Source: a virus
Taxonomy: Duplodnaviria > Caudoviricetes
Strand: one strand, 5' to 3'
Length of the DNA: 64,000 nucleotides
IMG/VR virus record: IMGVR_UViG_2881966637_000002
Location: 31,846 to 95,845 of that record
In this document: piece after piece, positions 1-64,000 of the stretch
Numbering within the stretch: the first letter of the stretch is position 1
How the letters are laid out: every line of letters starts with the position of its first letter
Translations under genes and position numbers: made by a program
Notes under the pieces: generated by a model
Seen by the model: only the letters and a program-made list of their open reading frames with translations
Database searches by the model: none
Told to the model about the DNA's origin: nothing

Positions 1-3000
1 ACCTTTTGTGCCTGGGTCAAGGTCTGTTTATTAACGCCCAGATCCTGGAACGAAGGGTTATCGACAAACGACGTTTGCGAACTAAACGCCCGGTCGAGCA
101 ACACGGCGAACCGGCGTTGCTGTTTCTTTCGGGCTTCCTCATCGGTAAACGTGTAGCCAAGCAATTCTTCGGCGTAGGGCCGCTCTATCGTGTCCAGCCC
201 GGTTAGTCGGCCGGTGAGTCCGCTTTGCTCTTTATCGTTGGCCAGTACCGTGGATGGCGCGTCGAAGTCTTTAAACGCACCGGCCGTTGTTTTGAACAAA
301 ATGCCAATGGCCTCGCCCGAACGCAAAAACTCGTCTTTTATAATGCCCTGCCCCACGGCCCCGAAATAACTACCGGCCTGCTTCAGTGGCACCGAAACAC
401 TTAACGAAAACACGCTTTGCGTGTATCGTTTCATGATCTGATCGAACCAGCGGTTGTACCGGTTCTCGTCCCGGTTCTTAGCCTGCTCCCTGCGGTAAGA
501 CTGTAGCCGGTCGCGCTCCTGAGACAGATACGATTTGATCTGGTCTTTCTGGCTCCCTTCGTAATCGGATTCGATGCTGTCCAGTAACCCGTTGAGGTTG
601 TTGACCACCTTCGTGTTTTCCAGCACATCGCTGACCGCGTTAAAATAGGTCTGCATGGTTTGTACCGGGTCGGTCGCGAGTATTGCCCCCGATGGGCCGT
701 TACGAGCAATTAACTGACGACTTTCTTCCAGTTTCTTAGCGTAACCCCGGCTTTGTTGTTCGGCCGACTGGTCGCTACCAAAGGTGGTCAACGGCCAGTA
801 ATAGTTGACCCGCTCGAACGGCTGGGCCGGATTGGCCTCATTCACTTCCTGCTCCAGCAAATCGGTTACGTCCGGGTTATTGAAGAATGTAGCAAGGCTA
901 GAAAAAGCGTCAATTTCCTCCTGCGCTCCGGTTTTGGTAAACCGGTCATTGAGTGTGTTGAAGTCCTCACGGCTCAGTAAGATATAATGAGTTTTGTCAT
1001 TCTCCCGGTCGTAATAAACTGCCCCTCGCGGTGTACGCCGTAGTCCACCTTCCGGGTTTTTCTCGTACAATGTAACCGGCTCTGGTGCTATCTCGCTGAC
1101 AGCATCCGCTTTGCCGTAACTGGAAAACTGGCTTCTCGACTTACCAACAATGTCCATCACGACGCCGACCGGCAGGTAGACCGGACGCCGGATAACGGCT
1201 CCCGTTTCATCGTAGTCATAGGTATTGACTTCGATGGTTCGCACTGTATCGGCCGTGTTGCCCGTGTTCAGCGAATAGCCAGCCAGCAGCCGGGTAGCTT
1301 GTATCTGGGCCGACTCCAATAGTACGCGGGCGTAAGCGGCTTTATCCGCTGATTCGCGCTTCACGGAGTGGATGAGTTCTTTCAGTAAGCCCCCCGAACT
1401 ATCAATGAAGTTGGTAAACGTTTCCAGGTTCAGTAAGTGCCGTAGCGAAAAGGCCGACCGGAACAGTTGCCCTCGATACCCCTCTGCGTTATACGCGGTA
1501 TCAAACCCTTCCTTAATCGCGTTGGCAATTTTGTACGCATCGACCTTAACCAGCGTACCGGACCGGGCGAAGAACAGTTCTTTGGGCCGGTTCCAGACCA
1601 TTGTTTCGGGCGAAACAAGTTCAAATCCCGTTTCCTGCGCTACTTTCTTAATGTAGTCGCGGTCGGTCTTAGTCCAGAACATTTTAGGCGTGTAGTACAG
1701 CCGGGCCGATACCTCAATTGGCACTTCGCTATACATCTGCATCGCTTGTTGCCGTAGACTGTCGGGCGTTACGATGGTCCCCAGACTAAACTGCATGGCC
1801 TCGGGGTTGGTGTCGATACCCGACGTATCGAAGCCGGCATTGATCTGATCAATCACGGTAGCGGCCCAGTTGGATAACTTGACGTCGGCCAGCTTCTGGT
1901 CGGAGACAAGGCCAATGGCGTTGCCGATCTCCGCAAACAGCCCGTCCAGCCACCGGCTAAATTTGCTCTTGCGGTCGCTGAGCCGGAACAACGCTCCCTT
2001 ATCACCTATCGCCGTTTCCAACGCTTCAATTTCCTGCTCGGCAACGGGCAGGTTTTTATAATAGGAGTTGGCCTGAAGCTTGGTGAAGTAGCCCGACTGC
2101 CGCACTAAGGAAACGCCTTGCTGGAATAGGTCTGGGTACTGGGTGCGGGCGACTTCGGCCCATAATCCGCCAAACTCGTGCATGACCGTGTTCTCGTCGA
2201 CGTCGGGCGACAAATACACCTTACCCTGCCAGCGGAACGCGAGTATTTTGTTGTTACCAACACGCGCCTGCGCATTGCTGTCAGCAATAGCCTGGTTGTA
2301 TTGCTGGGGGTCGGTAACGACCTCAACGCCCAGGTTCTCCCCGATCTGAAAGGCGAGGGCTTCAACCGGGGTGTCTACCCGCTGTTTAGGCAACAAGGAC
2401 GCTAAGCTGTGCTGAGTGCCCCCCCGGCTTTCGACAATGGCGTTGGTCGGACTGATGCCAGGCGTGCCTATGTTGGTGTAGGGTTGTTGTTGGGTTAGGC
2501 TGTCCTGAGACAGACCGACATTGAACTGCGTATCCCTGGCTTCGATTTCGCCAGCATACGACCGGTACGCGTCAACCACCTTTGCTCGTACGTCGGCGGG
2601 TAGCTGACTGGTCGGTGTGTTGCGGTAGGTTTCGGGCAGAACGCCTTGATCAACTAAATAATCAAGTGCTTGTTTGATGCTGGCTCCGGATGCAAACCCT
2701 TCATATCGCTGGATGGCGTGTTGCAACTCGTGCAGGGTGACGGATTCGAGTTGACCCACCCATCCAGGAACGTTGGGTTCCAAGTCACCTGTACGTCCGC
2801 CATTTCCATCAGATTCGGGTCGTCCAGCGAGGGAATCGTTTGCAGTAGCGTTTCGGGAAAGGGCGTCATAGTACGTGGCGTTAAGGATAATGAGGGGCAG
2901 GTTTTGCGGCACCATGCCCCACGTATTTTGCGTTTGGGCGCGTTCAAAAATAACGTGCCACTCGGCTAATTGTGGATACAAGGTAAGCAATTTGTCAATG

Positions 3001-6000
3001 GAAATCAAGTCCGACACGGGTATGGCCCCCGTGCGCTCACCGGACGGCAATGACCGCATGGTGTCCAGTACCTGTTGCGGGTTTTTTAGCCGGACATCCT
3101 GGTCGCTGACCCGGTGCCGCCACAACCCATCCATGCCCACGAACCAGCCGGTCGCTATCCGCACCCGCTCAGCTACGGCTTGCCAGTCGGGATTGGCCTG
3201 TAGCGTGGCAAACGTAACCCCGGCCGGGATACCCGCCTGAGCGTACTGAGCGGTAGCGATGGACAGGTTCTCGGCCAGGCTGACGCCATGTATGCCGTCC
3301 ACGGTCAGGTCGGCAACCGGCCCTATCGTGGAGAAGCGAGGTACCTCATCCAAACTGGGTATGTTGAACAGTTCGGTTTGCGCCTGATCACCGATAACCG
3401 CCTGTTCAATGGCCCTGATTTTCTGCTCGTTGTTCTCGGCAATCGCCCGGTCAATAGCGGTTATCTGCTCATCGACCTGCGCAATGGCCTGCTTGGCCGC
3501 ATCCTGCGCTTCGACGCCTGAGGTGTCCCCCGCGAACAGATCGCCTTGTTGCTTTTTTGTTGAAGCAGGTTTAGGTTGCGCATCCAGCCAAGCTTCCAGT
3601 TCGGCAACTGGTCGGTAGCTGGCAATGTCAATCGTAGGGGTACTGACAAAATAGCTCCGAAGGCGAAATCCTTCCGGCGCGGACGTAATGGCCTCCAGAG
3701 CCTTTTCTTTGCCACGCTGGTCAACAAACTCAGCAAGGCGATCAATCCAGGCACCGGACAGCTTTTCAACCAAATCAGTATTGTTGGCCTGCTTATTAGC
3801 GATTCGCTTAACCAGATCGGCGTTGTTGCGCATCCAGTCAGCAACGTCAAGACCCATAGAGACGAAACGCCCACCCTGCATCACGCCTACATCAACAATC
3901 TGTCCGCTTTCCAAACGAACGGACTGGTTTGTGCCGGGCAGCGACTCAATACCGTTTAATGCCGACTCTGCCGTTTGTTGCGCTTTTTGCCGCAACTCGG
4001 CTAGTCTGTCCCGGTACGCCGTTGGCGGATTGATAGTGTCGTTAGCGAACAGGTCACCGGTCTGCACCCGGTTGGATGCGTCGCGGACCAGCTTATCCCT
4101 TTTGCGAACTAAGGCGTCGCGTTGCTTTTGAAGATTGGCCCCTTCAATGTCGTAGGAAGCCGACACCTCGGCGGTGCGCACATCGCTCGACGCTTCGGCT
4201 AAAATCTCGCTGTCTACAGCGGAGGCAAGTTCAGTAGCTGTCGGCGTTTCTGCAACAGGGCCTTCAGCCGGTCGGTCGTTGGAGCCGGTGTCGTATCCGA
4301 GTTGGGCGTCGGGGGCGGGGGTAATGTCTGCATCGCTGCGGTCAGCATCGCCGTTTTCAACAGGTGCCGGTTCGATTTGGGTTTGGGCTCTGGCTGCATC
4401 AAGTATAGGGCTAACCGTTCGGTTGGCAAAGATAAGACTTTCGCGCATACGGGCATACAACTCGACACCCGCAGGATCAATACTTAGAAAGCCGGACTCA
4501 ATGGCCGGCAGGTCCGCAATAAAGTTTTCGGCGTCAAACGTGCCGTCCTCCTGGATGTAGCCGTTGCTGATCAAGGCTTCGACCAGCCGGTCAACTACCT
4601 CGTCGCTGTACGCATCCACCTCGCTGCTGACCACTGCCACCAGTTCGTCGGTAACGGCTTGTCCCTCCCACATCACGCGGTCCGCGTCGTCCATCGCGTC
4701 CAGCGCATCGGCCAAAGCCGCTTCGTCCTCGGCCGATGTATTGTCCTGGGCGTATTGCTGAAGCTGAACGGATGGACCGTTGCCTTTCCGGAACGAGATC
4801 ACGGCATCAACAATAGCCTGCTCAACGGTCTGCTGGTCGTAATCGGTCAGCCCCAGCCCATCGGCAATGGCCCGGCCAATGGTATCCAATGGCGGTTGCC
4901 GGTTGGCCGGGTCCAGGTAGTTGAGGTACGGGTTGCCGCCCCGTTCGCCCCGGCGCATGGCTTCGCCCGCCACCCGGTCGAAATCCGCCATATTGATTTT
5001 TCCCCTGGTAGCGAAAAAAGTCAATATCGCACTTTGCAGATCAACGGGCTGATACGTTTTGGCAAACGACGTCCTTACTTTCGGCGTTCGACCAGATCCT
5101 GTTGCAACAGCACTCTGGTCAGCGGGTCTTGGTTCAGTCCCCGCTCCAAGCTGGTCAAGCTCCGCTGCAAGCGCGTTATTTGCTCGGTCAAGCGATTCGA
5201 GTAATCCGTCTGCCCCTGCGACAGCATCTGTTCCTGCTGCTGCAACAGATCGGGCAAGGTCGTCTGTAGCTTCCTGTAGCTCTCGACCCGTCTGGTCGCG
5301 TTGCTCCTCGACAACCGCTCGTTGTAGTTGAGCATCGAAATCAAGCTCGACCGCTGGTGGTTGGGGGTTAAGGCCCGAAACTGACGGGGCGACAGGGTTC
5401 GGGCGTGGTGCCGGGGTAGGGGTTGCATCTTGTATCGGGGTTTCGGCCAACAAATCAATATCTTCGCCAACAACGGACTCGGTTTCCGGCGTTGTCTCTA
5501 CCGGCTGTACCAGAGCTCGCAGGGCGTCGGCTACCGGCGTATACGATTCGGCGTAGTCCGGGTTAGTCAGCAGGCCGTCAGCCGCGTTCAGATACGCCTG
5601 GGCCAGTGTTTTAAGCTCGACTACAGCCGGGTTTTCTTTGCGGGCTTTCCGCTTTTTGCCTTCATTGCCCTGCTCGACAGCGGCATACGCTTGTCCAATA
5701 CGCTCCAGAATGGTTTCGCCATCGCGGATCAAATTGGCCTCCGCGCTATTATCGGGACTGGTGTACCTTGCCGTGGGTAACGGCTTGGCCGGGTCCGCTA
5801 CGGCCGTGGCAATCGCCAGGTGCTGCGATAGGTCGTCGGCCGGCTGTTCGTAGCTGTCCACCAGGTCCGTGCGCTGGGACGGCACGAAGGCTCCGGATTC
5901 ATCCAGACCCAGGGGGGTGGTTATTTCTCCCCCCACCCGGTTCAGTTTTCGATACACCCGCTTGTTGCCGTTGGTCACGTACGCCTGTCCGCTGGGATCA

Positions 6001-7967
6001 ATAGCGGTTAAACTGGGCTGGAACGTATCGGGATAAGACACGGCCCCGAACTCCCGGTCCAGACTGTCCAGCTTTTCGGCTACGTAACTGTTGATCTGCG
6101 TGCGGTCGGTGTCGGCCGCGTACAGTTCCAACGCCTGCGCCCGGACTTTTTCGGCTTCGGCCCGGCGCGTTTGCTGCCGGATTTCGGCCTGGTACCTGGG
6201 GCCTTCCGGTGTCTCGACAACGCCCCCCAGTTGCTGGGTCAGTTTGCGCTGGGCGAGCTCCGCTTTGGTGCGTTCCCCGAACGAGGCATCGGGGTTTTGT
6301 AGCACCTGCTCCAGCTCGCTCAGCGACTGGCGGGCCTGGTTTAACTCGGCATCAAGCGTACGGGACACGTTGTCGGATTCGCTGACCCGGAACATGGTGG
6401 CCCGGTCGGATTCCGAAAACATATCCACGTCGGCAAAATCAGCCGATACCCGTGCCATGCGGCCCACTTTCTGCACCAGATCGGTATGGGTATCGGCGTC
6501 GATCTCACCGGCTTGCAACTTGTGATCCAGTACCCCCAGCATCTTTAACCGGCCGGGCGTCGATGGGTCGTCCGACAGCATCGTATCCAGGTCAATACTT
6601 TTGCGCAAGCCGTCGCGGACGTTGGCCCCGACGTAGCCAAACACCATTTGGTTCGCGGGCTTGGTTTGCAGAAAGGTGCCGGGCAGGGTACCGACGAGTA
6701 CGCCCAGCGTCATGCCGTAGATGCTGTTGAACGCATACCGCCCCCAGGACGGGTCTTTGAATCGGCCGGTACTGTCGGCCGACGCCAGGTTATTGTACAG
6801 CAATTTGGCCAGTGTCTCGGCGGTCGTTTGTAAAAACTCCTCACCGGCTTCGGGTAGTCCCTGCTCAACAAAACCCCGACCCACGCGGCTGGACAGTAGC
6901 TTGCCCATTGCGCCTAACGACTTCGGGTTTTCGATGATACCCAACGCGCCTTTCACCGCTTGCTGACCGGCATCGACCAGCATGTCCTGTGTGAAGCCTT
7001 TGGGTAGGTTCTGCAACGCTTTGACCGCTTCGGACATAGCCGCTTCACGGACGGTGGCACGGGCCGCTTTGTCGGAGATACCCAGCGCACGGGTCAAATT
7101 ACCCATGTTCGCTGTCTCAATCACCGCGTTGAGCCCGGCCACCGGAATCGCGAACAGCGTGGCGTCCTGTACGTCCAGGCCCGCCCCTATCGCTTCGCGC
7201 TGATAGAGTGGAAATGTTTGCAGAAAGGAACTGGCCCCGGTCACCCGCGTCGCGACTTTACCGGCCGTCGCCAGTTCCGACGTTAAAATGCCCCGCTCCG
7301 CAGCGGTAGCCGCTGTGCGCAACGCGGCCCGGCTCCCTATCGTCGCAACGGTACCAGCTCCGGCCGTGAGCAAACCGGGCAGGATATAGCTCATGAGCGT
7401 ACCGGTGGTGCCGACCAAGTTCTTAAAATTAACGTCAAACTCCACCCCGTTTTCCTCACTGTACGAGGCTAACGGTTTCTGGTAGTCCTGAGAAACATAG
7501 GCTTTGTAGCCGGCGAACGTTTTCTCAATGCTTTTCTGGGTCCGCGTCCACTCCGGTTTGTCGATCAACCCCGTTAGCCCGGCTCCGGCCGTGGCGAGCT
7601 GGGGCACGGCTTCGGCCATATCCACGAACCCGTTGTATATCTGGCCGAAGAACGCGTTGCCTGCCGTCGAGCTGTTGTAGGCGGGTGCCGCTTCCTGCTG
7701 GGTGGGGAGCCGGTAGGCGTCGAGGTAGTTGCTACCGGCGTTGCCCCCTTCCACCTGATCGTTGAGGTACGCCAGTTTCTGAGCCAGCGTCGCCTTCGTG
7801 GCAAAATCACCCTCGCGGTGCGCCTTCTCCAGCCGCTGAATATCGGCGGTTGGGTTCAGGCCGTTTTTCCGCATCACCTGTTCGGTGCGGGCACTGATCT
7901 GGAACGTGGAGAGCTCAGGGTATAAATCCTGATCCAGCTTCACGGGTTTAGTGGGCTGTTTTCCCAT
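1..7967 (-). CDS. Giant polyvalent/ejection protein (at least 2655 aa, 3' end outside window) with LPD23-like motif and zincin metallopeptidase domains
   Basis: ATG at 7967 overlaps the upstream TAA (TAATG); translated by hand as MGKQPTKPVKLDQDLY..., with no stop seen to position 1; TGWFVGMDGLWRHRVSD (~3100-3152), HELQHAIQRYEGFASG...YAGEIEAR (~2540-2732), TVMHEFGGLW (~2160-2189). Confidence 0.88.
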   Translation of the reverse strand, partial: MGKQPTKPVKLDQDLYPELSTFQISARTEQVMRKNGLNPTADIQRLEKAHREGDFATKATLAQKLAYLNDQVEGGNAGSNYLDAYRLPTQQEAAPAYNSSTAGNAFFGQIYNGFVDMAEAVPQLATAGAGLTGLIDKPEWTRTQKSIEKTFAGYKAYVSQDYQKPLASYSEENGVEFDVNFKNLVGTTGTLMSYILPGLLTAGAGTVATIGSRAALRTAATAAERGILTSELATAGKVATRVTGASSFLQTFPLYQREAIGAGLDVQDATLFAIPVAGLNAVIETANMGNLTRALGISDKAARATVREAAMSEAVKALQNLPKGFTQDMLVDAGQQAVKGALGIIENPKSLGAMGKLLSSRVGRGFVEQGLPEAGEEFLQTTAETLAKLLYNNLASADSTGRFKDPSWGRYAFNSIYGMTLGVLVGTLPGTFLQTKPANQMVFGYVGANVRDGLRKSIDLDTMLSDDPSTPGRLKMLGVLDHKLQAGEIDADTHTDLVQKVGRMARVSADFADVDMFSESDRATMFRVSESDNVSRTLDAELNQARQSLSELEQVLQNPDASFGERTKAELAQRKLTQQLGGVVETPEGPRYQAEIRQQTRRAEAEKVRAQALELYAADTDRTQINSYVAEKLDSLDREFGAVSYPDTFQPSLTAIDPSGQAYVTNGNKRVYRKLNRVGGEITTPLGLDESGAFVPSQRTDLVDSYEQPADDLSQHLAIATAVADPAKPLPTARYTSPDNSAEANLIRDGETILERIGQAYAAVEQGNEGKKRKARKENPAVVELKTLAQAYLNAADGLLTNPDYAESYTPVADALRALVQPVETTPETESVVGEDIDLLAETPIQDATPTPAPRPNPVAPSVSGLNPQPPAVELDFDAQLQRAVVEEQRDQTGRELQEATDDLARSVAAAGTDAVAGADGLLESLDRANNALAAELDQLGAGTEPRPADQSAVATGSGRTPKVRTSFAKTYQPVDLQSAILTFFATRGKINMADFDRVAGEAMRRGERGGNPYLNYLDPANRQPPLDTIGRAIADGLGLTDYDQQTVEQAIVDAVISFRKGNGPSVQLQQYAQDNTSAEDEAALADALDAMDDADRVMWEGQAVTDELVAVVSSEVDAYSDEVVDRLVEALISNGYIQEDGTFDAENFIADLPAIESGFLSIDPAGVELYARMRESLIFANRTVSPILDAARAQTQIEPAPVENGDADRSDADITPAPDAQLGYDTGSNDRPAEGPVAETPTATELASAVDSEILAEASSDVRTAEVSASYDIEGANLQKQRDALVRKRDKLVRDASNRVQTGDLFANDTINPPTAYRDRLAELRQKAQQTAESALNGIESLPGTNQSVRLESGQIVDVGVMQGGRFVSMGLDVADWMRNNADLVKRIANKQANNTDLVEKLSGAWIDRLAEFVDQRGKEKALEAITSAPEGFRLRSYFVSTPTIDIASYRPVAELEAWLDAQPKPASTKKQQGDLFAGDTSGVEAQDAAKQAIAQVDEQITAIDRAIAENNEQKIRAIEQAVIGDQAQTELFNIPSLDEVPRFSTIGPVADLTVDGIHGVSLAENLSIATAQYAQAGIPAGVTFATLQANPDWQAVAERVRIATGWFVGMDGLWRHRVSDQDVRLKNPQQVLDTMRSLPSGERTGAIPVSDLISIDKLLTLYPQLAEWHVIFERAQTQNTWGMVPQNLPLIILNATYYDALSRNATANDSLAGRPESDGNGGRTGDLEPNVPGWVGQLESVTLHELQHAIQRYEGFASGASIKQALDYLVDQGVLPETYRNTPTSQLPADVRAKVVDAYRSYAGEIEARDTQFNVGLSQDSLTQQQPYTNIGTPGISPTNAIVESRGGTQHSLASLLPKQRVDTPVEALAFQIGENLGVEVVTDPQQYNQAIADSNAQARVGNNKILAFRWQGKVYLSPDVDENTVMHEFGGLWAEVARTQYPDLFQQGVSLVRQSGYFTKLQANSYYKNLPVAEQEIEALETAIGDKGALFRLSDRKSKFSRWLDGLFAEIGNAIGLVSDQKLADVKLSNWAATVIDQINAGFDTSGIDTNPEAMQFSLGTIVTPDSLRQQAMQMYSEVPIEVSARLYYTPKMFWTKTDRDYIKKVAQETGFELVSPETMVWNRPKELFFARSGTLVKVDAYKIANAIKEGFDTAYNAEGYRGQLFRSAFSLRHLLNLETFTNFIDSSGGLLKELIHSVKRESADKAAYARVLLESAQIQATRLLAGYSLNTGNTADTVRTIEVNTYDYDETGAVIRRPVYLPVGVVMDIVGKSRSQFSSYGKADAVSEIAPEPVTLYEKNPEGGLRRTPRGAVYYDRENDKTHYILLSREDFNTLNDRFTKTGAQEEIDAFSSLATFFNNPDVTDLLEQEVNEANPAQPFERVNYYWPLTTFGSDQSAEQQSRGYAKKLEESRQLIARNGPSGAILATDPVQTMQTYFNAVSDVLENTKVVNNLNGLLDSIESDYEGSQKDQIKSYLSQERDRLQSYRREQAKNRDENRYNRWFDQIMKRYTQSVFSLSVSVPLKQAGSYFGAVGQGIIKDEFLRSGEAIGILFKTTAGAFKDFDAPSTVLANDKEQSGLTGRLTGLDTIERPYAEELLGYTFTDEEARKKQQRRFAVLLDRAFSSQTSFVDNPSFQDLGVNKQTLTQAQK

Positions 7968-9586
7968 TAGAACGTGGTGTCGGTATAAGGGGTGGGTATG
8001 GATGGGCTATCCCATTCGTCGTTGGCCCGTTTCTGGCCCTGCTGCGCTTTGATCAATGCGTTGACAAAGTTGGGGTTGGTTGCTTCGTCCACGGCTCCGA
8101 TAGGCACGAAGATCGTGGCCTGGCGGGTGGACGGGTTGTACACCCCGGTGCCGGCTTTGGTTGGCCCGAACCCGGTCCAGTTGTCAAACAAACCGGCTTT
8201 CCGGGCTTCAGTCGGGTCGTTGAACTGAACCGTTACCCGGCTGTAGCCCCGCGTATCTCGGTTCAGTGCGCCTTTGGCCGGGTTCATGCTTTTGGGGTCG
8301 ATGAACACCTTTGGCTCCACGGCCATGACCTGAAAGTTGAGTCCTTTCAGATTGATCGGCTGAACGCCGTTCGCGTCAATAAACCCTTCCTGAATATTGC
8401 CTTTGGAAAAGCCGGTTTTGGTTTTCTGAATGCCGAGCTGCTTCAGCAAGACATCACCCAATTCACCGAACAACGTAGCTCCCTGCAACTGGCCCACTTT
8501 GGACAGGTCAACTTTGGAAAACGGCAGCACCTTGCTGCCTTCCGCATCGGGATTGAGTCGGATTCGGTCGGCGGGTGCTGCCCCTTCGCCAAACAACTTA
8601 TAGTCGTAGCCCTTGCCGTCCGCCGATTTGCCCGACAAGTCCTGGAGTCCCTTCGCGATTTTGATCTGGTTGAGTTGGTACGCCTGCCCTTTCAACGCCT
8701 GATCGGTTTTGAAGCCGGCCGCAGCGCGTCGGTTCGCGTCGAACGCCAGCCCCAACCGCTGACCCTCCATACCCAGCCGCGCCTGGCTACGTTTATCGTC
8801 ATTGACCGCCATTTGGTAGCGGCCCTGGTCCATCTGAAACTCGTAGGCTTTGGTAATCGGGTCGGTTTTGTAATAGACCTGGGTGCCGGCGTGTTGACGT
8901 AAGTATTTATCGACGCCCATTTCCCGGCCGTATTTATCAACTAACCGGTTCAGCTTTTCATCCTCACCCACGGCTACCCGCTCCCACGGCAACCGGCCCG
9001 GCGCGTACTGGTCGCGAATTTCTTTTAAGTCGTCGTCTGGCTTGTAGCTGCCCCTAAACTTATAAACGTCGCTTTGCCCGGTCAGAAAGCCCTCCAGCTC
9101 TTTTTCGCCACTCCGGAAGTTTTTCAGATCGCCGTTGCCGACCAGGAACTCGGATTTATTCGCGGCCTCCTGCGCGGCCAGCACGTTGCGCACATTCTCG
9201 GTAGCCTGCGCGTACCACGGCTGTTGCTGCAACCGACTCGCGGAATCAGCCTGCCACGTAGGTAATTCGGCTTTGGCAAATGCCCGGAAATTGCCGTTGT
9301 ACTCCGTGAGCAGTTTCCGGTACAACGCTTTTTCCTCGGCGTTTACATACGCTTGCAGCCGCTGCCGGTCTTTACCCAGAAACGGTAAGCTGCGGGCTTT
9401 CTGCAAAAACTGCTGGGTCAACGCTTCGCCCTGCTGCTCCTCGGCCAACTGCTGTTCGCTTTGCTGGTTGGCGATTGCGCCGACCTGAACGGCTTCCTGC
9501 CGGGCGGCTGAAGCCGCGCTCCAATTGGTAAACGGCGCGGTTACCGCCCCGATTAGATTTGCGTTACCCGATGCAACCGGAACCAT
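7967..9586 (-). CDS. Putative internal virion/ejection protein
   Basis: 539 aa, A/Q-rich helical N-terminus, translationally coupled to the giant gene, lies after the tail genes. Confidence 0.6.
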   Translation of the reverse strand: MVPVASGNANLIGAVTAPFTNWSAASAARQEAVQVGAIANQQSEQQLAEEQQGEALTQQFLQKARSLPFLGKDRQRLQAYVNAEEKALYRKLLTEYNGNFRAFAKAELPTWQADSASRLQQQPWYAQATENVRNVLAAQEAANKSEFLVGNGDLKNFRSGEKELEGFLTGQSDVYKFRGSYKPDDDLKEIRDQYAPGRLPWERVAVGEDEKLNRLVDKYGREMGVDKYLRQHAGTQVYYKTDPITKAYEFQMDQGRYQMAVNDDKRSQARLGMEGQRLGLAFDANRRAAAGFKTDQALKGQAYQLNQIKIAKGLQDLSGKSADGKGYDYKLFGEGAAPADRIRLNPDAEGSKVLPFSKVDLSKVGQLQGATLFGELGDVLLKQLGIQKTKTGFSKGNIQEGFIDANGVQPINLKGLNFQVMAVEPKVFIDPKSMNPAKGALNRDTRGYSRVTVQFNDPTEARKAGLFDNWTGFGPTKAGTGVYNPSTRQATIFVPIGAVDEATNPNFVNALIKAQQGQKRANDEWDSPSIPTPYTDTTF

Positions 9587-12630: not shown

Positions 12631-13010
12631 TATGGTCGGAATGCTAAGTAGATACAGAGGGAGTTGATCAGCACATGAAACGCGTTGTCAATAATGATCA
12701 TGAGCCATACCGACATCCAAACTGGCTTGTCCGCGTCGTAGCCCATATTTGTGCTTGACCAGTTCCAGTTCACGAGCTTGATCCAGTACACGGCCAGCCG
12801 GTAGCGGTCGATGAGTACGTGACTACCCCACACAATCAACCACCAGCCCGACCAGCAAACCAGCAGGAACGGCAGCGCATATATCGTTGCGTGCAAAGCA
12901 GCCACCAGCAGCGACCTTGTTTTTTCTCTAGCCATAAAGTCATTTTGCAGTAGGTAGTCCCCCACAAAATGAAGCAGCAGGCCGATGTACAAGGCAAGTT
13001 CCAGTGTCAT
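12630..13010 (-). CDS. DUF3307-like membrane protein
   Basis: HFVGDYLLQ...H..IY...SHVLID...DNAFH His pattern with multiple TM helices. Confidence 0.75.
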   Translation of the reverse strand: MTLELALYIGLLLHFVGDYLLQNDFMAREKTRSLLVAALHATIYALPFLLVCWSGWWLIVWGSHVLIDRYRLAVYWIKLVNWNWSSTNMGYDADKPVWMSVWLMIIIDNAFHVLINSLCIYLAFRP

Positions 13011-46430: not shown

Positions 46431-46440
46431 CCCAGTGAAC

Positions 46441-53664: not shown

Positions 53665-55011
53665 GTGATTGATCTTGACAACGACCTGCCTGCTCTTTCG
53701 TACGCTACGGTGTGCAGCGGGATAGAAGCCCCCAGCGTAGCCTGGCATCCACTAGGCTGGCGACCGGTCTGGTTCTCTGAAATAGACCGGTTTGCCAGCC
53801 AGGTTCTTTCCCATCATTACCCCGACATACCTAATCTGGGGGATATGACCCTGATCCATGAAAAAGAAGCCTTCATCCAATCAGATATTGATCTTCTCTT
53901 CGGAGGAACCCCTTGTCAAAGCTTCTCCATCGCCGGACTCCGAAAGGGCCTTTCTGATCCGCGTGGCAACCTCGCCCTCACCTTTCTCGCACATCTTGAA
54001 AGAAAGCATCCCTGGTGGTTTGTTTGGGAAAATGTCCCCGGCGTCTTATCAAGCTGGTCAGATGAGACGGCTGGTCCGGAGGACGGAACCTACTGGCAAA
54101 CAAACGATTTTGACACCTTCCTCTGTGGACTTCGGGAAATCGGGTACGGTGTCGCGTGGCGAATCTTTGACGCTCAGTATTTCGGCCTGGCCCAGCGACG
54201 CGAGCGTGTGTTCGTTGTCGGATGTCTTGGTGACGAGCGAAGTGCCCAGGCGGTTCTTTTTGAGTCCGGTTGCCTGCAAGGGTATCCTGCGCCGAGCCGA
54301 AAAAAGGGGCAAAGCATTACCTACGACCTTGCTCCAAGCCTTAAAGCAAGTGGCCCAGGCACATCAAGAGTCGGTGATAAAAGAGGTCAGGACCCGGTAG
54401 TAGCTGTTTGTATGGCTAAAGGACAGGCTAATGCAGAGATTACAAGTGAGCACAGCCCTGCCCTCACTTGTAATCACGAAGCTCCAATTGTTGTGTACGG
54501 AATTGACGAGGAATGCAACGTTAGCGAGAATCATTTTGGTTCGCTGTTGCGTGGTGGTCAAGAGGGCACCAGACAGGCTGTTGCGTACCGTACGGCGGGT
54601 GATGGTGGTATCTACGAATCAGGTGATCATACTGCGGCTCTGACAACCAATACCGACCGTTCGGCCAATATAATTCTTGGTTTCAGGTATGGGGCGTCAC
54701 AGCAGGACACGCTGCATCATGAAAACGGAATTATGTCTACCCTGCCATCGGGCTCAAATAACAAAGCGGGCCATTATACCAAAACCGTTCAGGGCCTTTC
54801 CGTGCGCCGGTTAATGCCTGTAGAGGCCGAGCGGTTGCAGGGTTTTCCGGATGGATATACGGATATAAAGCCAAAAGGAAAGCCGACGCCTGATGGCCCC
54901 AGATACAAAGTTCTGGGCAACTCCATTGCTGTTCCGGTTCTACGTTGGATTGGTCGCCGGATTCAACTCGTACACAAACTAAAAGGCTATGAGCGAAGAA
55001 CTGAGCATTGA
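53665..55011 (+). CDS. DNA (cytosine-5) methyltransferase
   Basis: CSGIEA, GGTPCQSFS, WENVPG, QRRERVF, RRLMPVEAERLQGFP, GNSIAVPV. Confidence 0.93.
   Translation: MIDLDNDLPALSYATVCSGIEAPSVAWHPLGWRPVWFSEIDRFASQVLSHHYPDIPNLGDMTLIHEKEAFIQSDIDLLFGGTPCQSFSIAGLRKGLSDPRGNLALTFLAHLERKHPWWFVWENVPGVLSSWSDETAGPEDGTYWQTNDFDTFLCGLREIGYGVAWRIFDAQYFGLAQRRERVFVVGCLGDERSAQAVLFESGCLQGYPAPSRKKGQSITYDLAPSLKASGPGTSRVGDKRGQDPVVAVCMAKGQANAEITSEHSPALTCNHEAPIVVYGIDEECNVSENHFGSLLRGGQEGTRQAVAYRTAGDGGIYESGDHTAALTTNTDRSANIILGFRYGASQQDTLHHENGIMSTLPSGSNNKAGHYTKTVQGLSVRRLMPVEAERLQGFPDGYTDIKPKGKPTPDGPRYKVLGNSIAVPVLRWIGRRIQLVHKLKGYERRTEH
53858..54400 (+). CDS. Nested alternative-frame ORF resembling the beta polypeptide of split C5 MTases
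   Basis: 180 aa ATG-started ORF; CSLSDVL...VPRRFFLSPVACKGILRRAEKRGKALP. Confidence 0.6.
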   Translation: MKKKPSSNQILIFSSEEPLVKASPSPDSERAFLIRVATSPSPFSHILKESIPGGLFGKMSPASYQAGQMRRLVRRTEPTGKQTILTPSSVDFGKSGTVSRGESLTLSISAWPSDASVCSLSDVLVTSEVPRRFFLSPVACKGILRRAEKRGKALPTTLLQALKQVAQAHQESVIKEVRTR

Positions 55012-55465
55012 GCAGTACCGCGCCGAGTTGCAGCGCGGGGCCGTATCCCGCCCCAAACTGCCCAGCCGCAAGAAGCAGGTATCGCAGCCCGACCAGCCCG
55101 GTACCGAGACACCGCCCGGCGTTCAGGTGATTTTGGGTTCCCCGCCGTCCAAGTCCAATTCGTACCGAATCGTGAATGACACGCTGGTGAAATCAACCGC
55201 GATGAAGCTGTGGGAGGAGTCGTTTTACATGCAGTGCAATCTGTACCGGGGCGTTCGGATCAACGGTTTCTTTGAGCTGACGCTAACCGCGTTTTTCCCC
55301 TCGATCAGGCACGATCTGGACGGCGTGTTGAAGGGATTGCTGGATTGCTTACAGACCATGCAGGTGATCAAAAACGACAAATATAACACGGCGATCAACG
55401 CCCGAAAGTTTGTGGACAAACAGAACCCTCGTATCGAATTTACCCTGACCCCGATCAATTTATGA
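54989..55465 (+). CDS. rusA: RusA-family Holliday junction resolvase
   Basis: PPSKSN...HDLDGVLKGLLDCL...IKNDK...NPRIEF. Confidence 0.85.
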   Translation: MSEELSIEQYRAELQRGAVSRPKLPSRKKQVSQPDQPGTETPPGVQVILGSPPSKSNSYRIVNDTLVKSTAMKLWEESFYMQCNLYRGVRINGFFELTLTAFFPSIRHDLDGVLKGLLDCLQTMQVIKNDKYNTAINARKFVDKQNPRIEFTLTPINL

Positions 55466-56010
55466 CCCAGCAAGACGATCAAGTGTACGGCCGGTTCGTG
55501 CATAACGGCACGTCGTACCGGCTCAACCCGGACGCCGGTGCTGCTGGCCCCAGTGGTCCAATCCTACGCTCACTCCATATCAATGATAAACCGGTCTGGC
55601 TCATTGACGACGCGTACTGGATTAAGGAGCCGTGGTCGGAGAACGAGTTGCCCTTCGACGTGGACGTCGCGTTCTACGCGTTCCGGTACTGTCTGGGCCG
55701 CATGACGTACGTAGTCTATGACATGGCCGAGTACCTGATCAATCACGCCGACGCGATCGATGATAAACACCGGGCTCTGATCATATCGGAGATTGATGCC
55801 GCGATCGAGAAGAAACAGGCCGGTTGGGATATGGACGTTAAACAGTGGCAACGGGTCAAAGCCCGGCTGTCCCCGGCCTACCGGGTACGTGTGTTTGATG
55901 GTTGGTACACGATGTATGTATGGGACGGAAAGTATTATTTACCCAACATGCAGCAGTACATGGAACCCTCGGCTATTATAGAAATCACACCACTCAATGG
56001 GACGACGTAG
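55462..56010 (+). CDS. Hypothetical phage protein
   Basis: AFRYCLGRMTYV motif; ATGA coupling. Confidence 0.65.
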   Translation: MTQQDDQVYGRFVHNGTSYRLNPDAGAAGPSGPILRSLHINDKPVWLIDDAYWIKEPWSENELPFDVDVAFYAFRYCLGRMTYVVYDMAEYLINHADAIDDKHRALIISEIDAAIEKKQAGWDMDVKQWQRVKARLSPAYRVRVFDGWYTMYVWDGKYYLPNMQQYMEPSAIIEITPLNGTT

Positions 56011-56680
56011 GAAAGAGCCCGACATCGACCCGGCTTCCGACTGGCCGCAGCTGATCGCGGCCCACGCCCCGTTCATTCGTCACGCAGCCCGCAGGTTTCT
56101 GACCAACAGCGACGACGCGCAGGATCTGGCCCAGGACGTGATGGTCCGGGTCCTGCTCAACGAGAAAAACTTCGACCGGGGCACTGACCTGAAAGCCTGG
56201 CTGTACTGCATCGTTCGGAACATGTTCATCACCGCTTACCAGCGCAAAAAACGGGTGAGTCGGGTTGATCTCTCCGACGAGCTCTACAGCGGTATGGATG
56301 TGCTGGGGAGCGTGGAGAGCGGGGCCGACGAGCTCATGCACATGCAGTCGGTGCTGGTCGCGGTCAACGGGCTGGTGCCGCGCTACCGGGAGCCCCTATT
56401 GCTGTTCATTCAGGGCTGGATGTATGAAGAAATCGCGGCCCACATCGGCCTGCCGGTGGGTACGGTCAAGAACCGGATACACGTCGCCCGGAAGTATTTG
56501 CACGACAACAGGGAGCAGATCGCGACCACAACCACCCTGGTTCTGGACGAAACGCCGGAATCATTGCTCAATACCCTATGTACCTCCGCCAGCAACACTT
56601 CGTCTTTTTCAACCGGGCCACGGGCCAAATCTGGCAGGACCGGCTCTTTGCGACGCGGCAGGAAGCCAAAAACGCCCTAG
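55997..56680 (+). CDS. ECF-type RNA polymerase sigma factor
   Basis: DAQDLAQDV, LKAWLYCIVRN, YEEIAAHIGLPVGTVKNRIHVAR. Confidence 0.92.
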   Translation: MGRRRKEPDIDPASDWPQLIAAHAPFIRHAARRFLTNSDDAQDLAQDVMVRVLLNEKNFDRGTDLKAWLYCIVRNMFITAYQRKKRVSRVDLSDELYSGMDVLGSVESGADELMHMQSVLVAVNGLVPRYREPLLLFIQGWMYEEIAAHIGLPVGTVKNRIHVARKYLHDNREQIATTTTLVLDETPESLLNTLCTSASNTSSFSTGPRAKSGRTGSLRRGRKPKTP

Positions 56681-58346: not shown

Positions 58347-58753
58347 ACACCTGTCTCCATTGCAACGCTCCGGTAGAGCCCCAAGAGATCATTCACGGCT
58401 ACGATGGCTATAAGTCGTATTACGAATGTAAGTCGTGCGAGTGGTGGTCGATGCTCGAAACCGGCAATTCTCAGGTTGGCCACTTCCTGTCACCCGTTGT
58501 CAAGCTATTCCCCCACACCCCGCACGATTTGTGTGTGCATGACCTGGTTTCGGCTATCAACAAAATGCCCCGCAACACGACGCCTGCCGAGCTGGCCAAC
58601 TTCGTGCAAGGCTCGGTGTGCCAGTACCTGGAAGCCTTCTGCGTCGCGGCCAATATCCCGGACGAAAAACGGAAGCTCTACGAGATCAACACCGGTCTGG
58701 TCCCCACCCTACCCCGCAAAGAATTTACCCTGCCCGCCAATGAAACGAATTGA
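58343..58753 (+). CDS. Zinc-ribbon protein
   Basis: CLHC...CKSC. Confidence 0.6.
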   Translation: MNTCLHCNAPVEPQEIIHGYDGYKSYYECKSCEWWSMLETGNSQVGHFLSPVVKLFPHTPHDLCVHDLVSAINKMPRNTTPAELANFVQGSVCQYLEAFCVAANIPDEKRKLYEINTGLVPTLPRKEFTLPANETN

Positions 58754-59915
58754 TCTGTATTTCGGGGACAACCGCATTATACTGCCTAAACTGGCCGAGA
58801 ACTCGGTGGATTCCATCGTTACCGACCCGCCATACGAGATCAATATGATGGGTAAGTCCTGGGACCGGAGTGGTATTGCCTACGACGTGTATATGTGGCA
58901 GTGCGCATACCGGGTACTGAAGCCGGGGGGCTATCTGCTCGCGTTCGGCGCAACCCGGACCTACCACCGCATGGCCTGTGCGGTGGAGGATGCCGGATTC
59001 CGGGTTATAGACCAGATGATATGGCTATATTCTGAGGGCTTCCCCAAGTCGCATAACCTGAAAGGTGAGCACGAGGGTAAGGGTAGCGCGTTAAAGCCAG
59101 CGCATGAGCCCATTGTTATTGCGCAAAAACCGTTCAGGGGCACCATCCTTGACAATGTACAGAAGTGGGGCGTCGGCGTTTTTAACATTGACCAAAGCCG
59201 CATCCCGTTTAGTACTGAACAGGACCTGAAATCGGCTACCTGGGGTCGCGGCACAGACATCACGGGGGGGCAATTTGTGGGCAGTACGCAGCCGTCAGGC
59301 AAGACCAATGTAGAGGCCAACCCGAAAGGTCGCTGGCCCGCCAACGTGCTGCACGACGGTAGTGAGCCTATTATGGACGCGTTTGCTCAGTATGGCGAAC
59401 GGACCAGCGGCAAACCGAGCGGAATTAAAAAGGCTGCTAACAATATATTCGGTCAGTTTGGCGAACAGCCCTTAACCGGCTATGGCGATACGGGTAGTTT
59501 GGCCCGCTTTTTCTACTGCCCCAAAGCAACCAAAGCCGATAGGGAGGAAGGACTACGGCGATTCTCCTTACAGCAGGGCGGTATAAAGAACGCGAGCGGT
59601 CGGGGGTTTTCGGCCTCTGACCCCAACCGGCCCATTCTTAGACGCAACACATGCCCAACCGTCAAACCGGTTGAATTGATGCGGTATCTGTGTAAGCTGG
59701 TTACACCCACAGACGGAACCGTACTGGACCCATTTATGGGCAGTGGCTCAACCGGCAAAGCAGCCGCTATCGAAAGTTTTGGGTTCGTCGGTATTGATAA
59801 AGACCCAGAACATTTCCCGATCGCGAAGGCGCGTATTCATCACGCTGCCGGCAAGTATAAGCCGCAATCCACCATTTTCAACCACGGATCTATCCATGAA
59901 CGCAGCGAAATTTGA
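58740..59915 (+). CDS. DNA amino-methyltransferase (N6A/N4C, beta class)
   Basis: VDSIVTDPPY near the N-terminus; PTVKP; VLDPFMGSGSTG; likely start MKRIDL at 58740. Confidence 0.93.
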   Translation: MKRIDLYFGDNRIILPKLAENSVDSIVTDPPYEINMMGKSWDRSGIAYDVYMWQCAYRVLKPGGYLLAFGATRTYHRMACAVEDAGFRVIDQMIWLYSEGFPKSHNLKGEHEGKGSALKPAHEPIVIAQKPFRGTILDNVQKWGVGVFNIDQSRIPFSTEQDLKSATWGRGTDITGGQFVGSTQPSGKTNVEANPKGRWPANVLHDGSEPIMDAFAQYGERTSGKPSGIKKAANNIFGQFGEQPLTGYGDTGSLARFFYCPKATKADREEGLRRFSLQQGGIKNASGRGFSASDPNRPILRRNTCPTVKPVELMRYLCKLVTPTDGTVLDPFMGSGSTGKAAAIESFGFVGIDKDPEHFPIAKARIHHAAGKYKPQSTIFNHGSIHERSEI

Positions 59916-61965: not shown

Positions 61966-62790
61966 ATGATTTTCACAACACTAGCCTGGTTCTTTTTCAG
62001 AATAGCCGCTGTTCTGGCAATCGTCGCGGCTTACTTTGTCCTCTTTGACAATGCTGTCCATGAACAAGCCGACGCCATACTTATAGCAGGCTCCTTTTGT
62101 TTGGTAACATCGCAAGTCTTACTGTTGATCAATTCTTGGCAGGAACGGCGACAGAAAGGGTTGAAAACGATTAACCCAAACGTGATGTCGGAACCCGCTG
62201 GCTGGCAGAACAGGTGGGTGTCCTACCCCAAACCACCACCGCTACATAGTGAACAAATTTCATCAAAGTCGCGGCTGACCCCAGAGCTCCGTTTCTTTAT
62301 AGCGATCACCGGTATTGTGGCCAGCTTTGTCGCGCTCAAAACGGGGTTTATTAGCGACCTGACTTTTTACATAGTCTGCTTTCTGGCCCTGCTGCTACAG
62401 CAATTATTGAAGCCGAAGTACGTAGCCAATTTGTACAGCAAGGGTGGCGTCGTACCCAGCGTGTCCGACGAACTCGCTGCTGAAAATCAGAAATTGACCG
62501 AACGCATATCCGTGCTCGAATCAACGATCGAGTCACGAAACAGCACGATCCAGACGCAGCGGGACTCTATTGACACGTTACATCAGCTACAGTCCGCCCA
62601 TAACGAACAACTTAACAGAAAAGACGAACTGTTCAATCAAGCGATGGCGATTGATAAAACCAATCGGCAAACGATTGATAAGTATCGCGAACTCACGGAC
62701 GAATCGCTACGTCATATCCAAACCCAGTCCGCTATGATCGTTGACCTCAGAGCGCAGCTGGAGCAGTATCAGGCTAGATCCGGTTCATGA
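61966..62790 (+). CDS. Membrane protein (about 4 TM) with C-terminal coiled coil
   Basis: Two pairs of hydrophobic helices followed by a heptad-rich tail. Confidence 0.65.
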   Translation: MIFTTLAWFFFRIAAVLAIVAAYFVLFDNAVHEQADAILIAGSFCLVTSQVLLLINSWQERRQKGLKTINPNVMSEPAGWQNRWVSYPKPPPLHSEQISSKSRLTPELRFFIAITGIVASFVALKTGFISDLTFYIVCFLALLLQQLLKPKYVANLYSKGGVVPSVSDELAAENQKLTERISVLESTIESRNSTIQTQRDSIDTLHQLQSAHNEQLNRKDELFNQAMAIDKTNRQTIDKYRELTDESLRHIQTQSAMIVDLRAQLEQYQARSGS

Positions 62791-64000
62791 TTCCTTTGCT
62801 GTTTTTGAGCAAATCGGTTATCGTCATGTCGATATAATCGGCCGTGGTCTTTATGCTATCGTGCTGGTATATGATTTGTAGATCGAACAGGCTACCGCCC
62901 TCCTCGATAAACCGTTTGCCAAACGTTCTTCGGGCGGTATGGGACGACACGACTTTCCACTTCTCGATCGTTTCCTCGACCCGGTTGATTCCGGAATGCC
63001 TTACCTTCACAATGGGCGTGTTGATACCGGCCTGTCGGCAAAGTTCTTTCATATAGTCCGATTCGCCCTGCCGCGACATGGCCGGTATCCGCCAACCACA
63101 CGACTCCAGTATGTCAACGCAGGGCGTACTGATCGGCAATATGTTTTCTTTCCCGGTTTTGGCACTGGTATACCGCACGACCCACTCACCCCCTTCTTTG
63201 TGAAAGTTCTTGGCCGAGAGCCCATCGCACTCCGATATCCGTAGACTCGTGTAGCAGCGAAACAGCCACCGGACATAAGCTTTCCACATGCCTGATCCGA
63301 TTGCGGGTTTCGTCTGGATCAGCGCGTCGAGCTCGGCTTTGGTCAAGCTGATTGGCCGGGTGCGCTCGCCCTTATAGGTATAGTTATCGATCGCGTCGGG
63401 TACCACGAACCCCTGTTTCCTGGCTTCGCCCGCGACCACTTTCAAATTTTTGATATGGTTATGGATCGTCGCGTTGCTGAGCTCGTTGTCCACCAGAAAG
63501 TCGGTGTATTCGTCCAGCTTTTTCTCCGTCAGCATCGCCCAGGTCAGCGAGGTACTAAAGTTCTTTAAATGTCCCTCGACCTGATTGAAGGTCCGCAGGT
63601 ACGACGGCTTGCGCCGTTTCGCGCTGATCCGCTTGAACTCGGCAAAGAACGGCACGATTCGTTCGTCGCGTTTGGTCTTGACCGCTGCCTGCTCTGGCTC
63701 TACCTGCTGCTGGATGCGATTGGTAATCTCGGTATTGGTCGGCACCATACCCAGCTTGTCGAAGTAGGCCAGGGCTGACGTGAACTGCTTCGTTAGTTCC
63801 TGGATGCGGTCGCGCATCAATACGACGTTCGGGGTCTTGGGATGCAGGCTCTGGTGGTCAACGTTGAAATGGGCCGGGGCAATACTGATACCGGCCGATA
63901 TCTTGACCGTGCGCCCTTTGAACTGGGACGTGAGCGATAGCGGGGCCAGCCCCTTTTTATTGATTTTGCTCTGGTCCAGGAACAGTTTGATCTCGTACAT
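62774..64000 (-). CDS. int: Tyrosine integrase (Bacteroidota arm-binding + SAM-like + catalytic domains)
   Basis: TSLRISE (R), KTG (K), SHTARRTF (HxxR), QHDS (H), TTADY (Y). Confidence 0.93.
   Translation of the reverse strand: MYEIKLFLDQSKINKKGLAPLSLTSQFKGRTVKISAGISIAPAHFNVDHQSLHPKTPNVVLMRDRIQELTKQFTSALAYFDKLGMVPTNTEITNRIQQQVEPEQAAVKTKRDERIVPFFAEFKRISAKRRKPSYLRTFNQVEGHLKNFSTSLTWAMLTEKKLDEYTDFLVDNELSNATIHNHIKNLKVVAGEARKQGFVVPDAIDNYTYKGERTRPISLTKAELDALIQTKPAIGSGMWKAYVRWLFRCYTSLRISECDGLSAKNFHKEGGEWVVRYTSAKTGKENILPISTPCVDILESCGWRIPAMSRQGESDYMKELCRQAGINTPIVKVRHSGINRVEETIEKWKVVSSHTARRTFGKRFIEEGGSLFDLQIIYQHDSIKTTADYIDMTITDLLKNSKGIMNRI

Follow-up and report, generated by a model that had tools for sequence, protein, structure and literature searches.

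An integrated element in a Spirosomaceae chromosome

The window, the whole 64,000-nt stretch of DNA analysed here (positions 31,846 to 95,845 of IMG/VR record IMGVR_UViG_2881966637_000002), corresponds to G000:C1:119950-183949 in a bacterial genome of 7.37 Mb (27 contigs, about 56% GC). The host is a soil or water bacterium whose chromosome belongs to the Spirosomaceae (Cytophagales, Bacteroidota), the family of Fibrella aestuarina. The window carries the right-hand 64 kb of a 97.5-kb prophage (C1:86627-184100) in which virion genes of the crAss-like phages (Crassvirales) are combined with an integrase, repressor-type regulators and a replication module. An initial annotation, made from the window only, had placed the element at 1-64000; it reaches 33.3 kb further to the left, a part analysed as flank pieces L002, L003, L005 and L006, and about 100 bp further to the right.

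The ends of the prophage are marked by a 20-bp exact direct repeat, TGCGGAGAGAGAGGGATTCG, located by the search for att sites in the flanks that the initial annotation had proposed. Its right copy (C1:184081-184100) is the 3'-terminal 20 bp of a tRNA-Ser(GCT) gene, which is intact and lies 133 bp past the right edge of the window, beside the integrase. The single left copy (C1:86627-86646) lies just inward of a tRNA-Pro gene and katG (catalase-peroxidase), both of which belong to the host. By arithmetic, the chance expectation for a 20-mer match in that search space is about 1e-4. There is only one integrase between the two repeats, and because an exact att pair encloses this lone integrase, the entire 97.5 kb is assigned to the prophage. 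A tyrosine integrase with att direct repeats at a tRNA gene is the arrangement of an integrating prophage, and the element is likely to be a complete-looking temperate podovirus prophage with a crAss-type virion, whose tyrosine integrase inserted it at the 3' end of tRNA-Ser(GCT).

Is this one element or two? The GC content steps from about 57% in the virion half of the window to 45-53% in the early half, and gene orientation switches near 32 kb, as might be seen if a lambdoid prophage and a crAss-like fragment were unrelated neighbours or had been joined in error. Against this, the 97.5 kb have one integrase and one enclosing att pair, no further set of head or tail genes turns up in the early half, and a prophage of Fibrella pairs the same virion genes with a homologous clamp, sigma factor and small early genes. 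Misassembly, a possibility raised at the outset, is excluded because both halves lie in one att-bounded element with one integrase on a contig of 2.0 Mb and the same mix recurs in Fibrella; an origin from two separate elements is very improbable.

Virion genes of crAss type

Eight virion genes of the element are akin to those of crAss-like phages: the muzzle protein MUZ, the tail-barrel ring proteins R1, R2 and R3, the portal, TerL, the major capsid protein (MCP) and a gp33-like protein (Table 1). The ring nomenclature is that of the crAss001 structure, where R1 is gp43, R2 is gp40, R3 is gp35 and R4/R5 is gp34 (PMC10172136). The element has several features of the Crassvirales, namely a crAss-type MCP, homologous portal and TerL, a ring barrel with a muzzle, a Bacteroidota host and a genome size (97.5 kb) within about 90-105 kb. 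Two others were not detected: a family A or B DNA polymerase of its own, and the giant two-barrel DFDxD virion RNA polymerase with its associated giants.

The 1308-aa gene that had been called muzzle-like matches both Pfam models, crAss_MUZ and crAss_MUZ_C. When compared by tblastn with 50,697 GenBank phages, it finds only phi14:2, cr108_1 and cr128_1, at about 21% identity, and the best direct match is phi14:2 (1e-11). The two genes described as ring-like proved to be homologues of R1 and R2, the latter reaching crAss001 gp40 (1e-60) and phi14:2 g074 by jackhmmer. A third ring protein, R3, follows the MCP gene in the left arm together with the gp33-like protein.

For portal, MCP and TerL, searches of Pfam, PHROG and PDB sequences returned almost nothing. 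The 838-aa portal itself has no match in these three collections, nor by tblastn among the 50,697 GenBank phages, classified ones included; only 11 homologues were found among 5.8 billion proteins. Its identification in the initial annotation nevertheless stands. A profile built from 10 portal homologues reaches the phi14:2 portal, g093 (3.4e-14), as well as a paralogue encoded on contig C21 of the same genome (2e-45); jackhmmer, run on a local set of crAss and IMG/VR open reading frames (ORFs), connects the protein to crAss001 gp20 and to g093; and in the ESM Atlas it falls among portal clusters. TerL is connected to crAss001 gp19 and phi14:2 g094 by jackhmmer. For the MCP, an early hhalign comparison of the family with a two-sequence crAss alignment was suggestive (20%, P 0.0011), and has been superseded by a library search and by the fold. 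The family profile retrieves 67 clusters from 1.84 billion representatives, and Pfam Crass_capsid is found on 33 of the 62 that were aligned. A model predicted from this alignment with AlphaFold2 (AF2; pLDDT 79.7, pTM 0.75) has crAss001 MCP chains as its top seven Foldseek matches in the PDB, the best with an E-value of 3.8e-20; phage VP1 follows at 3e-14 and all others at 4e-8 or worse. In BFVD, the top named matches of the model include the MCPs of cr130_1 and of a crAssphage isolate. The C21 MCP paralogue forms a bridge, scoring 58.6 bits with the prophage MCP profile and 48 bits with Pfam Crass_capsid.

Some of the portal's ESM Atlas neighbours carry P22_portal, phage modules are mosaic, and tail fibres have been exchanged with the C21 prophage, all of which would suit a temperate podovirus of ordinary P22-like type into which no more than a crAss muzzle gene had come by horizontal transfer. 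We give this explanation hardly any credence. The P22_portal model misses the element, and TerL, portal, MCP, gp33-like protein, R1, R2, R3 and MUZ are each nearest to crAss proteins and stand in crAss gene order. A better match to P22-, T7- or N4-type proteins, the outcome that was to tell against crAss kinship, was not obtained: the MCP has the crAss fold, and MUZ, R1, R2 and R3 fall in crAss-specific families.

The MCP block has the same order as crAss001 gp31-gp36 and phi14:2 g092-g088; by hhalign, its 305- and 376-aa proteins have no significant similarity to gp31 and gp36, respectively. The same is true of the 192-, 185-, 152- and 110-aa proteins when compared with gp42, gp38, gp39 and gp21. 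The 185-aa gene adjoins the portal gene also in the Fibrella and Spirosoma fluviale prophages, and the 152-aa ORF, which lies between portal and R2, has no homologue among the relatives examined. The many unassigned small ORFs yielded no recognisable lysis cassette, small terminase or scaffold.

Cargo candidates and undetected polymerases

Downstream of MUZ lie the large genes that the initial annotation had called cargo, encoding products of 1004 and 539 aa and one of at least 2655 aa within the window; the last ORF, joined across the left edge, encodes 2932 aa. They occupy the positions of crAss001 gp45 (842 aa), gp46 (534 aa) and gp47 (2341 aa) and are of roughly similar sizes, with no homology to these three proteins detected by hhalign: the 1004-aa protein gave a weak, non-significant alignment with gp45 (P 0.0095), and the 539-aa protein no significant one with gp46. 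The 1004-aa protein matches Pfam LysM (4.8e-12) and PHROG endolysin/transglycosylase families (about 1e-7). The 539-aa protein is 40% identical to its counterpart in the Fibrella prophage.

The 2932-aa protein has a weak LPD23 match, a single HELQH zincin motif at aa 1746, and a stretch of about 220 aa (residues 1599-1820) resembling large structural proteins of the F116-like phages, which are podoviruses. This combination is what one expects of a polyvalent ejected protein, not of a polymerase. The homologue in Fibrella aestuarina (C1:4059617-4072180 of that genome; L021-L026) is 4187 aa long, about 1300 of them in an insert that the 2932-aa protein does not have.

No DNA or RNA polymerase had been seen in the window, and this is equally true of the 33 kb outside it. 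In a six-frame search of the whole genome, the lone DNA_pol_A match is the host polA (C1:1236168, about 1.05 Mb away) and DNA_pol_B has none; no polymerase domain was found in any of the element's ORFs that were scanned with Pfam. The 2932-aa protein aligns with crAss001 gp47, gp49 and gp50 and with phi14:2 g065-067 at an hhalign probability of 6% or less. The DxDxD motif is nowhere in it, and the same scan recovers GSDFDIDK in g066 and GSDFDVDK in gp50. The giant homologue of the C21 prophage has one DxDxD that is not conserved in this family, and none is conserved in the Fibrella and C21 homologues. Across the whole element there is no family A or B DNA polymerase, and no virion RNA polymerase is detectable.

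Could an ordinary Crassvirales-type phage have polymerases too divergent to be seen, such as a virion RNA polymerase within the 2932-aa protein? The virion RNA polymerases of crAss phages are notoriously divergent, the giant gene lies exactly at the gp47/g067 position, and its product has been judged by sequence-level methods. We regard this as quite unlikely, given the failure to align with six RNA polymerase-associated proteins of crAss001 and phi14:2, the motif results, and the presence of one giant gene and not three. Moreover, the easily detected family A and B DNA polymerases are absent too, and the element has a sigma factor and a clamp instead.

Lysogeny, replication and other early genes

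The early half contains two minus-strand genes of repressor-type helix-turn-helix (HTH) families that face the plus-strand KilA-N operon; the 123-aa XRE gene is transcribed divergently from this operon. Of the divergent XRE/cro switch described initially, the XRE/CI-like repressors facing the KilA-N operon are borne out by PHROG matches, while the 87-aa candidate cro has no family match. Integrase, KilA-N, DnaB and RusA, all named in the initial annotation, have Pfam matches. The RepL-like genes it also listed are not supported: RepL (PF05732) gives sub-threshold matches only, the highest in the window reaching 13 bits (E 0.22) with a 106-aa ORF at 29862-30182.

The 309-aa gene upstream of DnaB, already described as an iteron-bearing initiator, has 5.2 tandem copies of an 11-bp unit (89% matches) at 48751-48807. 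Its product has no Pfam or PHROG match, and because of the iterons and its position it is read as a putative initiator with the origin inside its own gene. The sliding clamp is kept in the Fibrella prophage at 32% identity, and a sigma factor homologue is present there as well. Further family matches in the early half are to an HNH protein and a LytTR protein. No Rfam family scores above its gathering threshold anywhere in the window.

Several accessory genes may have other roles. The PAPS-reductase/QueC-like protein, encoded in the replication operon beside the clamp and two DNA methyltransferases, may belong to a DNA-modification function. The Tad3- and Tad6-like genes just upstream of the portal gene suggest an anti-defence island. 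Between the giant gene and the MCP block, a plus-strand island (L003:16518-17060 and L003:17778-19131; C1:116467-119080) that encodes HAD_SAK_2 ("Swiss Army Knife" RNA-repair HAD) and zinc-ribbon proteins breaks the minus-strand virion operons.

Table 1. Features of the prophage and of the second prophage on C21. Positions refer to the window unless a flank piece or contig is named.
Feature	Position	Strand	Basis
Giant cargo or polyvalent virion protein (candidate)	3..7967	-	full gene 2932 aa, runs left to C1:119118 (L005:119-8917)
539-aa virion cargo candidate, position of gp46 (cargo C2)	7967..9586	-	position and size
1004-aa cargo candidate, position of gp45 (cargo C1)	9616..12630	-	LysM and lysozyme/transglycosylase-like C-terminal part
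126-aa membrane protein	12630..13010	-	phrog_6676 6.9e-31; phrog_2470 "membrane protein" 2e-14
Muzzle protein MUZ, 1308 aa	13162..17088	-	Pfam crAss_MUZ 8.6e-53 (180 bits), crAss_MUZ_C 1.5e-15
Ring protein R1, 205 aa (crAss001 gp43 homologue)	17943..18560	-	hhalign 99.1%, E 5.3e-19, 156 columns
192-aa protein at position of crAss IHF-like gp42	18578..19156	-	no family match
Ring protein R2, 225 aa (crAss001 gp40/phi14:2 g074 homologue)	19168..19845	-	hhalign 100%
185-aa conserved virion-module protein	20594..21151	-	no family match
Portal, 838 aa	21429..23945	-	profile, jackhmmer and ESM Atlas links to portals
Tad3-like anti-Thoeris protein	24662..25213	-	Pfam Tad3 1e-38
Tad6-like anti-Thoeris protein	27269..27880	-	Pfam Tad6 9.3e-40
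CI-like repressor candidate, 229 aa	38955..39644	-	phrog_4 "transcriptional repressor" 3.3e-6, residues 12-203
XRE-type HTH regulator, 123 aa	40495..40866	-	phrog_8 5e-8, phrog_4 1.5e-6; weak Pfam HTH_31/HTH_19
KilA-N domain protein, antirepressor-type	41273..42046	+	Pfam KilA-N 1.3e-15
Recombination genes: AAA_24 ATPase, DUF4494 protein, PD-(D/E)XK nuclease	44722..47414	+	Pfam 2.9e-30, 4.7e-39, 1.1e-3
Putative replication initiator, 309 aa	48464..49393	+	internal iterons, position upstream of DnaB
DnaB-type replicative helicase	49705..51165	+	Pfam DnaB_C 2e-63, DnaB 3e-9
PAPS-reductase/QueC-like PP-loop protein	51466-52350	+	
Sliding clamp (DNA polymerase III beta-like)	52427..53383	+	Pfam DNA_pol3_beta_2 1.5e-7, DNA_pol3_beta 4e-6
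C5 cytosine DNA methyltransferase	53665..55011	+	Pfam 5.2e-51
RusA Holliday-junction resolvase	54989..55465	+	Pfam RusA 2.2e-6
Extracytoplasmic function (ECF)-type sigma-70 family sigma factor	55997..56680	+	Pfam Sigma70_r2 7.7e-18, Sigma70_r4_2 1.1e-11
N6/N4 DNA methyltransferase	58404..59915	+	Pfam N6_N4_Mtase 2.3e-30
Tyrosine integrase, Bacteroidota type	62774..64000	-	Pfam Phage_integrase, Phage_int_SAM_5, Arm-DNA-bind_5; attR about 80 bp past the window end
TerL	L003:7097-9202		phrog_6681 8.6e-29
MCP, 528 aa	L003:12334-13920		nearest Atlas clusters are Crass_capsid
gp33-like protein	left arm, after MCP		hhalign 85%, E 6e-6
Ring protein R3 (R3/R4-like; crAss001 gp35)	left arm, after MCP		hhalign 100%
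Beta-helix tail-fibre proteins, 716 and 1006 aa	left arm		
Proteins of 1002 and 1436 aa	left arm		
C21 prophage, integrase	C21:386587-387147		
C21 prophage, MUZ	C21:404607-408320		
C21 prophage, TerL	C21, about 436.9-438.9 kb		
C21 prophage, MCP	C21:440071-441597		
C21 prophage, portal	C21:444291-446822		

Relatives and a second prophage in the same genome

Both the portal family and the MCP family have few members. Those with names come from Fibrella aestuarina BUZ 2, from Spirosoma fluviale and from a metagenome-assembled genome of Arsenicibacter. The Fibrella copy is chromosomal, and a related prophage is likewise present in the Spirosoma fluviale chromosome. In common with the window prophage, the Fibrella prophage has TerL (55% identity), the MCP block, MUZ, R1, R2, the portal, the 539-aa protein and the giant of 4187 aa, besides the clamp, the sigma factor and the small early genes, with the modules in a different order. 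Of 301 genomes from the host's family, five carry the portal and these same five carry crAss_MUZ, which was found in none of 400 other Bacteroidota genomes searched.

IMG/VR contains 77 MUZ relatives, which form a gradient from 43% identity down to the canonical crAss phages; one of them, an 80-kb provirus, carries an integrase. In an unrooted FastTree of 64 MCPs, built with no outgroup or labelled members of other families, the prophage falls in a well-supported clade of 29 rows that is separate from the half of the tree to which crAss001, phi14:2 and the C21 prophage belong. Three of the nearer MUZ relatives in IMG/VR (L038, L044 and L057; uncultivated virus genomes 3300035183_000469, 3300028844_003967 and 3300014205_000219; MUZ homologues at 24-26% identity) are genomes of 67-69 kb, rated 91-100% complete by CheckV and in one case bearing direct terminal repeats. 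No integrase, PolA or PolB was found in them, and they may represent an undescribed mid-sized group with crAss-type tails.

The same host genome carries a second, distantly related crAss-like prophage with an integrase, on contig C21 at roughly 386.6-465 kb (G000:C21:386587-465000; L027-L030). Its MUZ has Pfam scores of 405 and 309 bits, and its MCP passes the Crass_capsid threshold. TerL, portal, MUZ, DnaB and the giant protein are 22-44% identical between the two prophages. For two tail-fibre genes the identity is 84% and 58%, a sign that they were exchanged recently within the host. Like the first prophage, it has no PolA or PolB in a six-frame search. The C21 prophage is the more crAss-like of the two and bridges the window prophage to the canonical crAss families.

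A proposed life cycle and its significance

How would such a phage work? The virion would consist of a crAss-fold capsid and a large portal, continued by a barrel of the paralogous rings R1, R2 and R3 and closed by the muzzle. The large cargo proteins would travel inside the head and leave it before the DNA does, the one bearing a LysM/muramidase-like part presumably helping to cross the cell wall. After injection, the early genes would be transcribed by the host RNA polymerase, and because the host enzyme reads them they could be repressed by the CI/XRE-type regulators, permitting lysogeny. In a phage that must be repressible, it makes sense for an injected RNA polymerase to have been lost or to have been absent from the start, which is offered here as an argument and not as a result. 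Replication would start when the initiator binds the iterons within its own gene and loads the phage DnaB, with the phage clamp recruiting the host Pol III. The ECF sigma factor might then redirect the host RNA polymerase to the late (virion) operons, while the methyltransferases and the Tad3/Tad6 homologues would blunt restriction and Thoeris.

Several points weigh against reading the element as a working temperate phage of crAss type. The kinship of MCP and portal with crAss is transitive or structural; the Pfam Crass_capsid and P22_portal models miss the element's own MCP and portal, respectively, and the AF2 model of the portal, made from a 10-sequence alignment, is unusable (pLDDT 47). 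A very divergent RNA polymerase domain may hide in the 2932-aa protein. The cargo and initiator roles are suggested by position and repeats, without family assignment. A k-mer search upstream of genes for a shared promoter or leader gave no convincing late-promoter motif for the sigma factor. Finally, the prophage is known here from its sequence alone, so that excision, induction and particles are predictions.

This last point also suits a defective or cryptic prophage, that is, a once-temperate crAss-like phage that has become fixed in the chromosome and no longer makes particles. Few genomes of the family carry the lineage (5 of 301), and the lysis cassette, small terminase and scaffold are not recognised among the unassigned small ORFs. 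However, every large virion gene is an unbroken open frame as long as its homologues, the att repeats match perfectly and the tRNA is intact, portal and MCP homologues of 59-63% identity lie on contigs whose 97-111 kb equal roughly one genome, and 97.5 kb suits a crAss-type head. A cryptic prophage is therefore unlikely.

The initial suggestion of a temperate lineage of Bacteroidota podoviruses with crAss-like head-tail proteins is supported, with the proviso that the lineage is very far from the named Crassvirales. Tentatively, and at slightly less than even chances, we place the Spirosomaceae prophages as a deep sister lineage of the Crassvirales, of family level or higher, that is truly lysogenic and dependent on host polymerases. 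If so, the crAss virion, with its capsid, ring barrel, muzzle and cargo train, would be an ancient module separable from the polymerase-carrying lytic lifestyle, in keeping with a gain or loss of the injected RNA polymerase that tracks the switch between lytic and temperate growth, and cultivable non-gut hosts could for the first time provide a crAss-type virion with an inducible genetic system. Isolates of the Spirosoma/Fibrella type could allow induction, genetics and cryo-electron microscopy of a crAss-like particle without anaerobic gut bacteria.

Published evidence for temperate crAss relatives consists of repressor genes and incomplete prophage fragments in the epsilon group (PMC8375218, PMC11054128, PMC7886860). 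The window prophage is a clean case of integration, with defined att sites, one integrase and a full set of crAss-type virion genes. The hallmark DNA and virion RNA polymerases are missing and a sigma factor and sliding clamp are found instead, uncoupling the crAss virion from the crAss strategy of replication and transcription, and the prophage suggests how early transcription becomes repressible. The two prophages in one genome, with their near-identical tail fibres, are in addition a natural case of module exchange.

Comparison with known systems

Isolated crAss-like phages have been described as incapable of lysogeny (PMC8375218), and crAss-like prophages have been a matter of speculation only (PMC7886860). 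A literature search found no link of crAss phages to Fibrella or Spirosoma. Among crAss-like phages of the epsilon group, repressor and antirepressor genes of the KilA/BRO type, together with chromosomal copies, suggest lysogeny; this group keeps the virion RNA polymerase and a primase, no integrase is reported, and the Parabacteroides prophages are incomplete (PMC11054128). As described, the epsilon phages (crAssE-Sib) differ from the present prophage, which is complete-looking, att-bounded and integrase-bearing and has its host in another bacterial order.

With the Bacteroides phage crAss001 (Kehishuvirus primarius, Steigviridae, Crassvirales; virion 7QOF-7QOI) the prophage shares homologous MCP, portal, TerL, gp33-like protein, R1/R2/R3 and MUZ, as well as a genome of about 100 kb and a Bacteroidota host. 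Local gene order matches in two places: ring-ring-MUZ-cargo-cargo-giant (gp40-gp47), with parallel sizes, and scaffold-position gene-MCP-gp33-ring-gp36-position gene (gp31-gp36). The overall arrangement differs, in that the portal block of the prophage is followed by the MCP block and then by TerL, and identity is only about 11-20%, against 11-21% for the named Crassvirales in general. The prophage has no PolA (gp64), no homologues of the RNA polymerase-associated gp47/49/50, no tRNA array and no nucleotide-metabolism genes. Unlike crAss001, it has an integrase, att-site integration, CI/XRE repressors, KilA-N, an ECF sigma factor and a sliding clamp.

The Cellulophaga phage phi14:2 (Akihdevirus balticus) gives the best direct matches for MUZ and portal and resembles the prophage in its environmental, non-gut Bacteroidota context and its size of about 100 kb. 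It has a 2180-aa DFDID RNA polymerase (the characterised virion RNA polymerase gp66) with associated giants, where the prophage has one unrelated protein of 2932 aa and no such motif. phi14:2 is not known to integrate.

The "lambdoid" chassis of the initial annotation holds as an analogy of layout, not as homology: apart from generic HTH matches, nothing was found to link it to the O, P, Q, CI or Cro families of lambdoid phages, and no Q-type antiterminator was recognised. As in P22 and the lambdoid phages, the integrase lies at one end by a tRNA att site, the repressor and early operons are divergent, RusA is present and internal proteins would be ejected; the putative iteron origin inside the initiator gene would be a further shared trait. 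Unlike lambdoid phages, the prophage encodes its own DnaB and clamp and not a helicase loader, has a sigma factor in place of a Q antiterminator, and has a genome two to three times larger.

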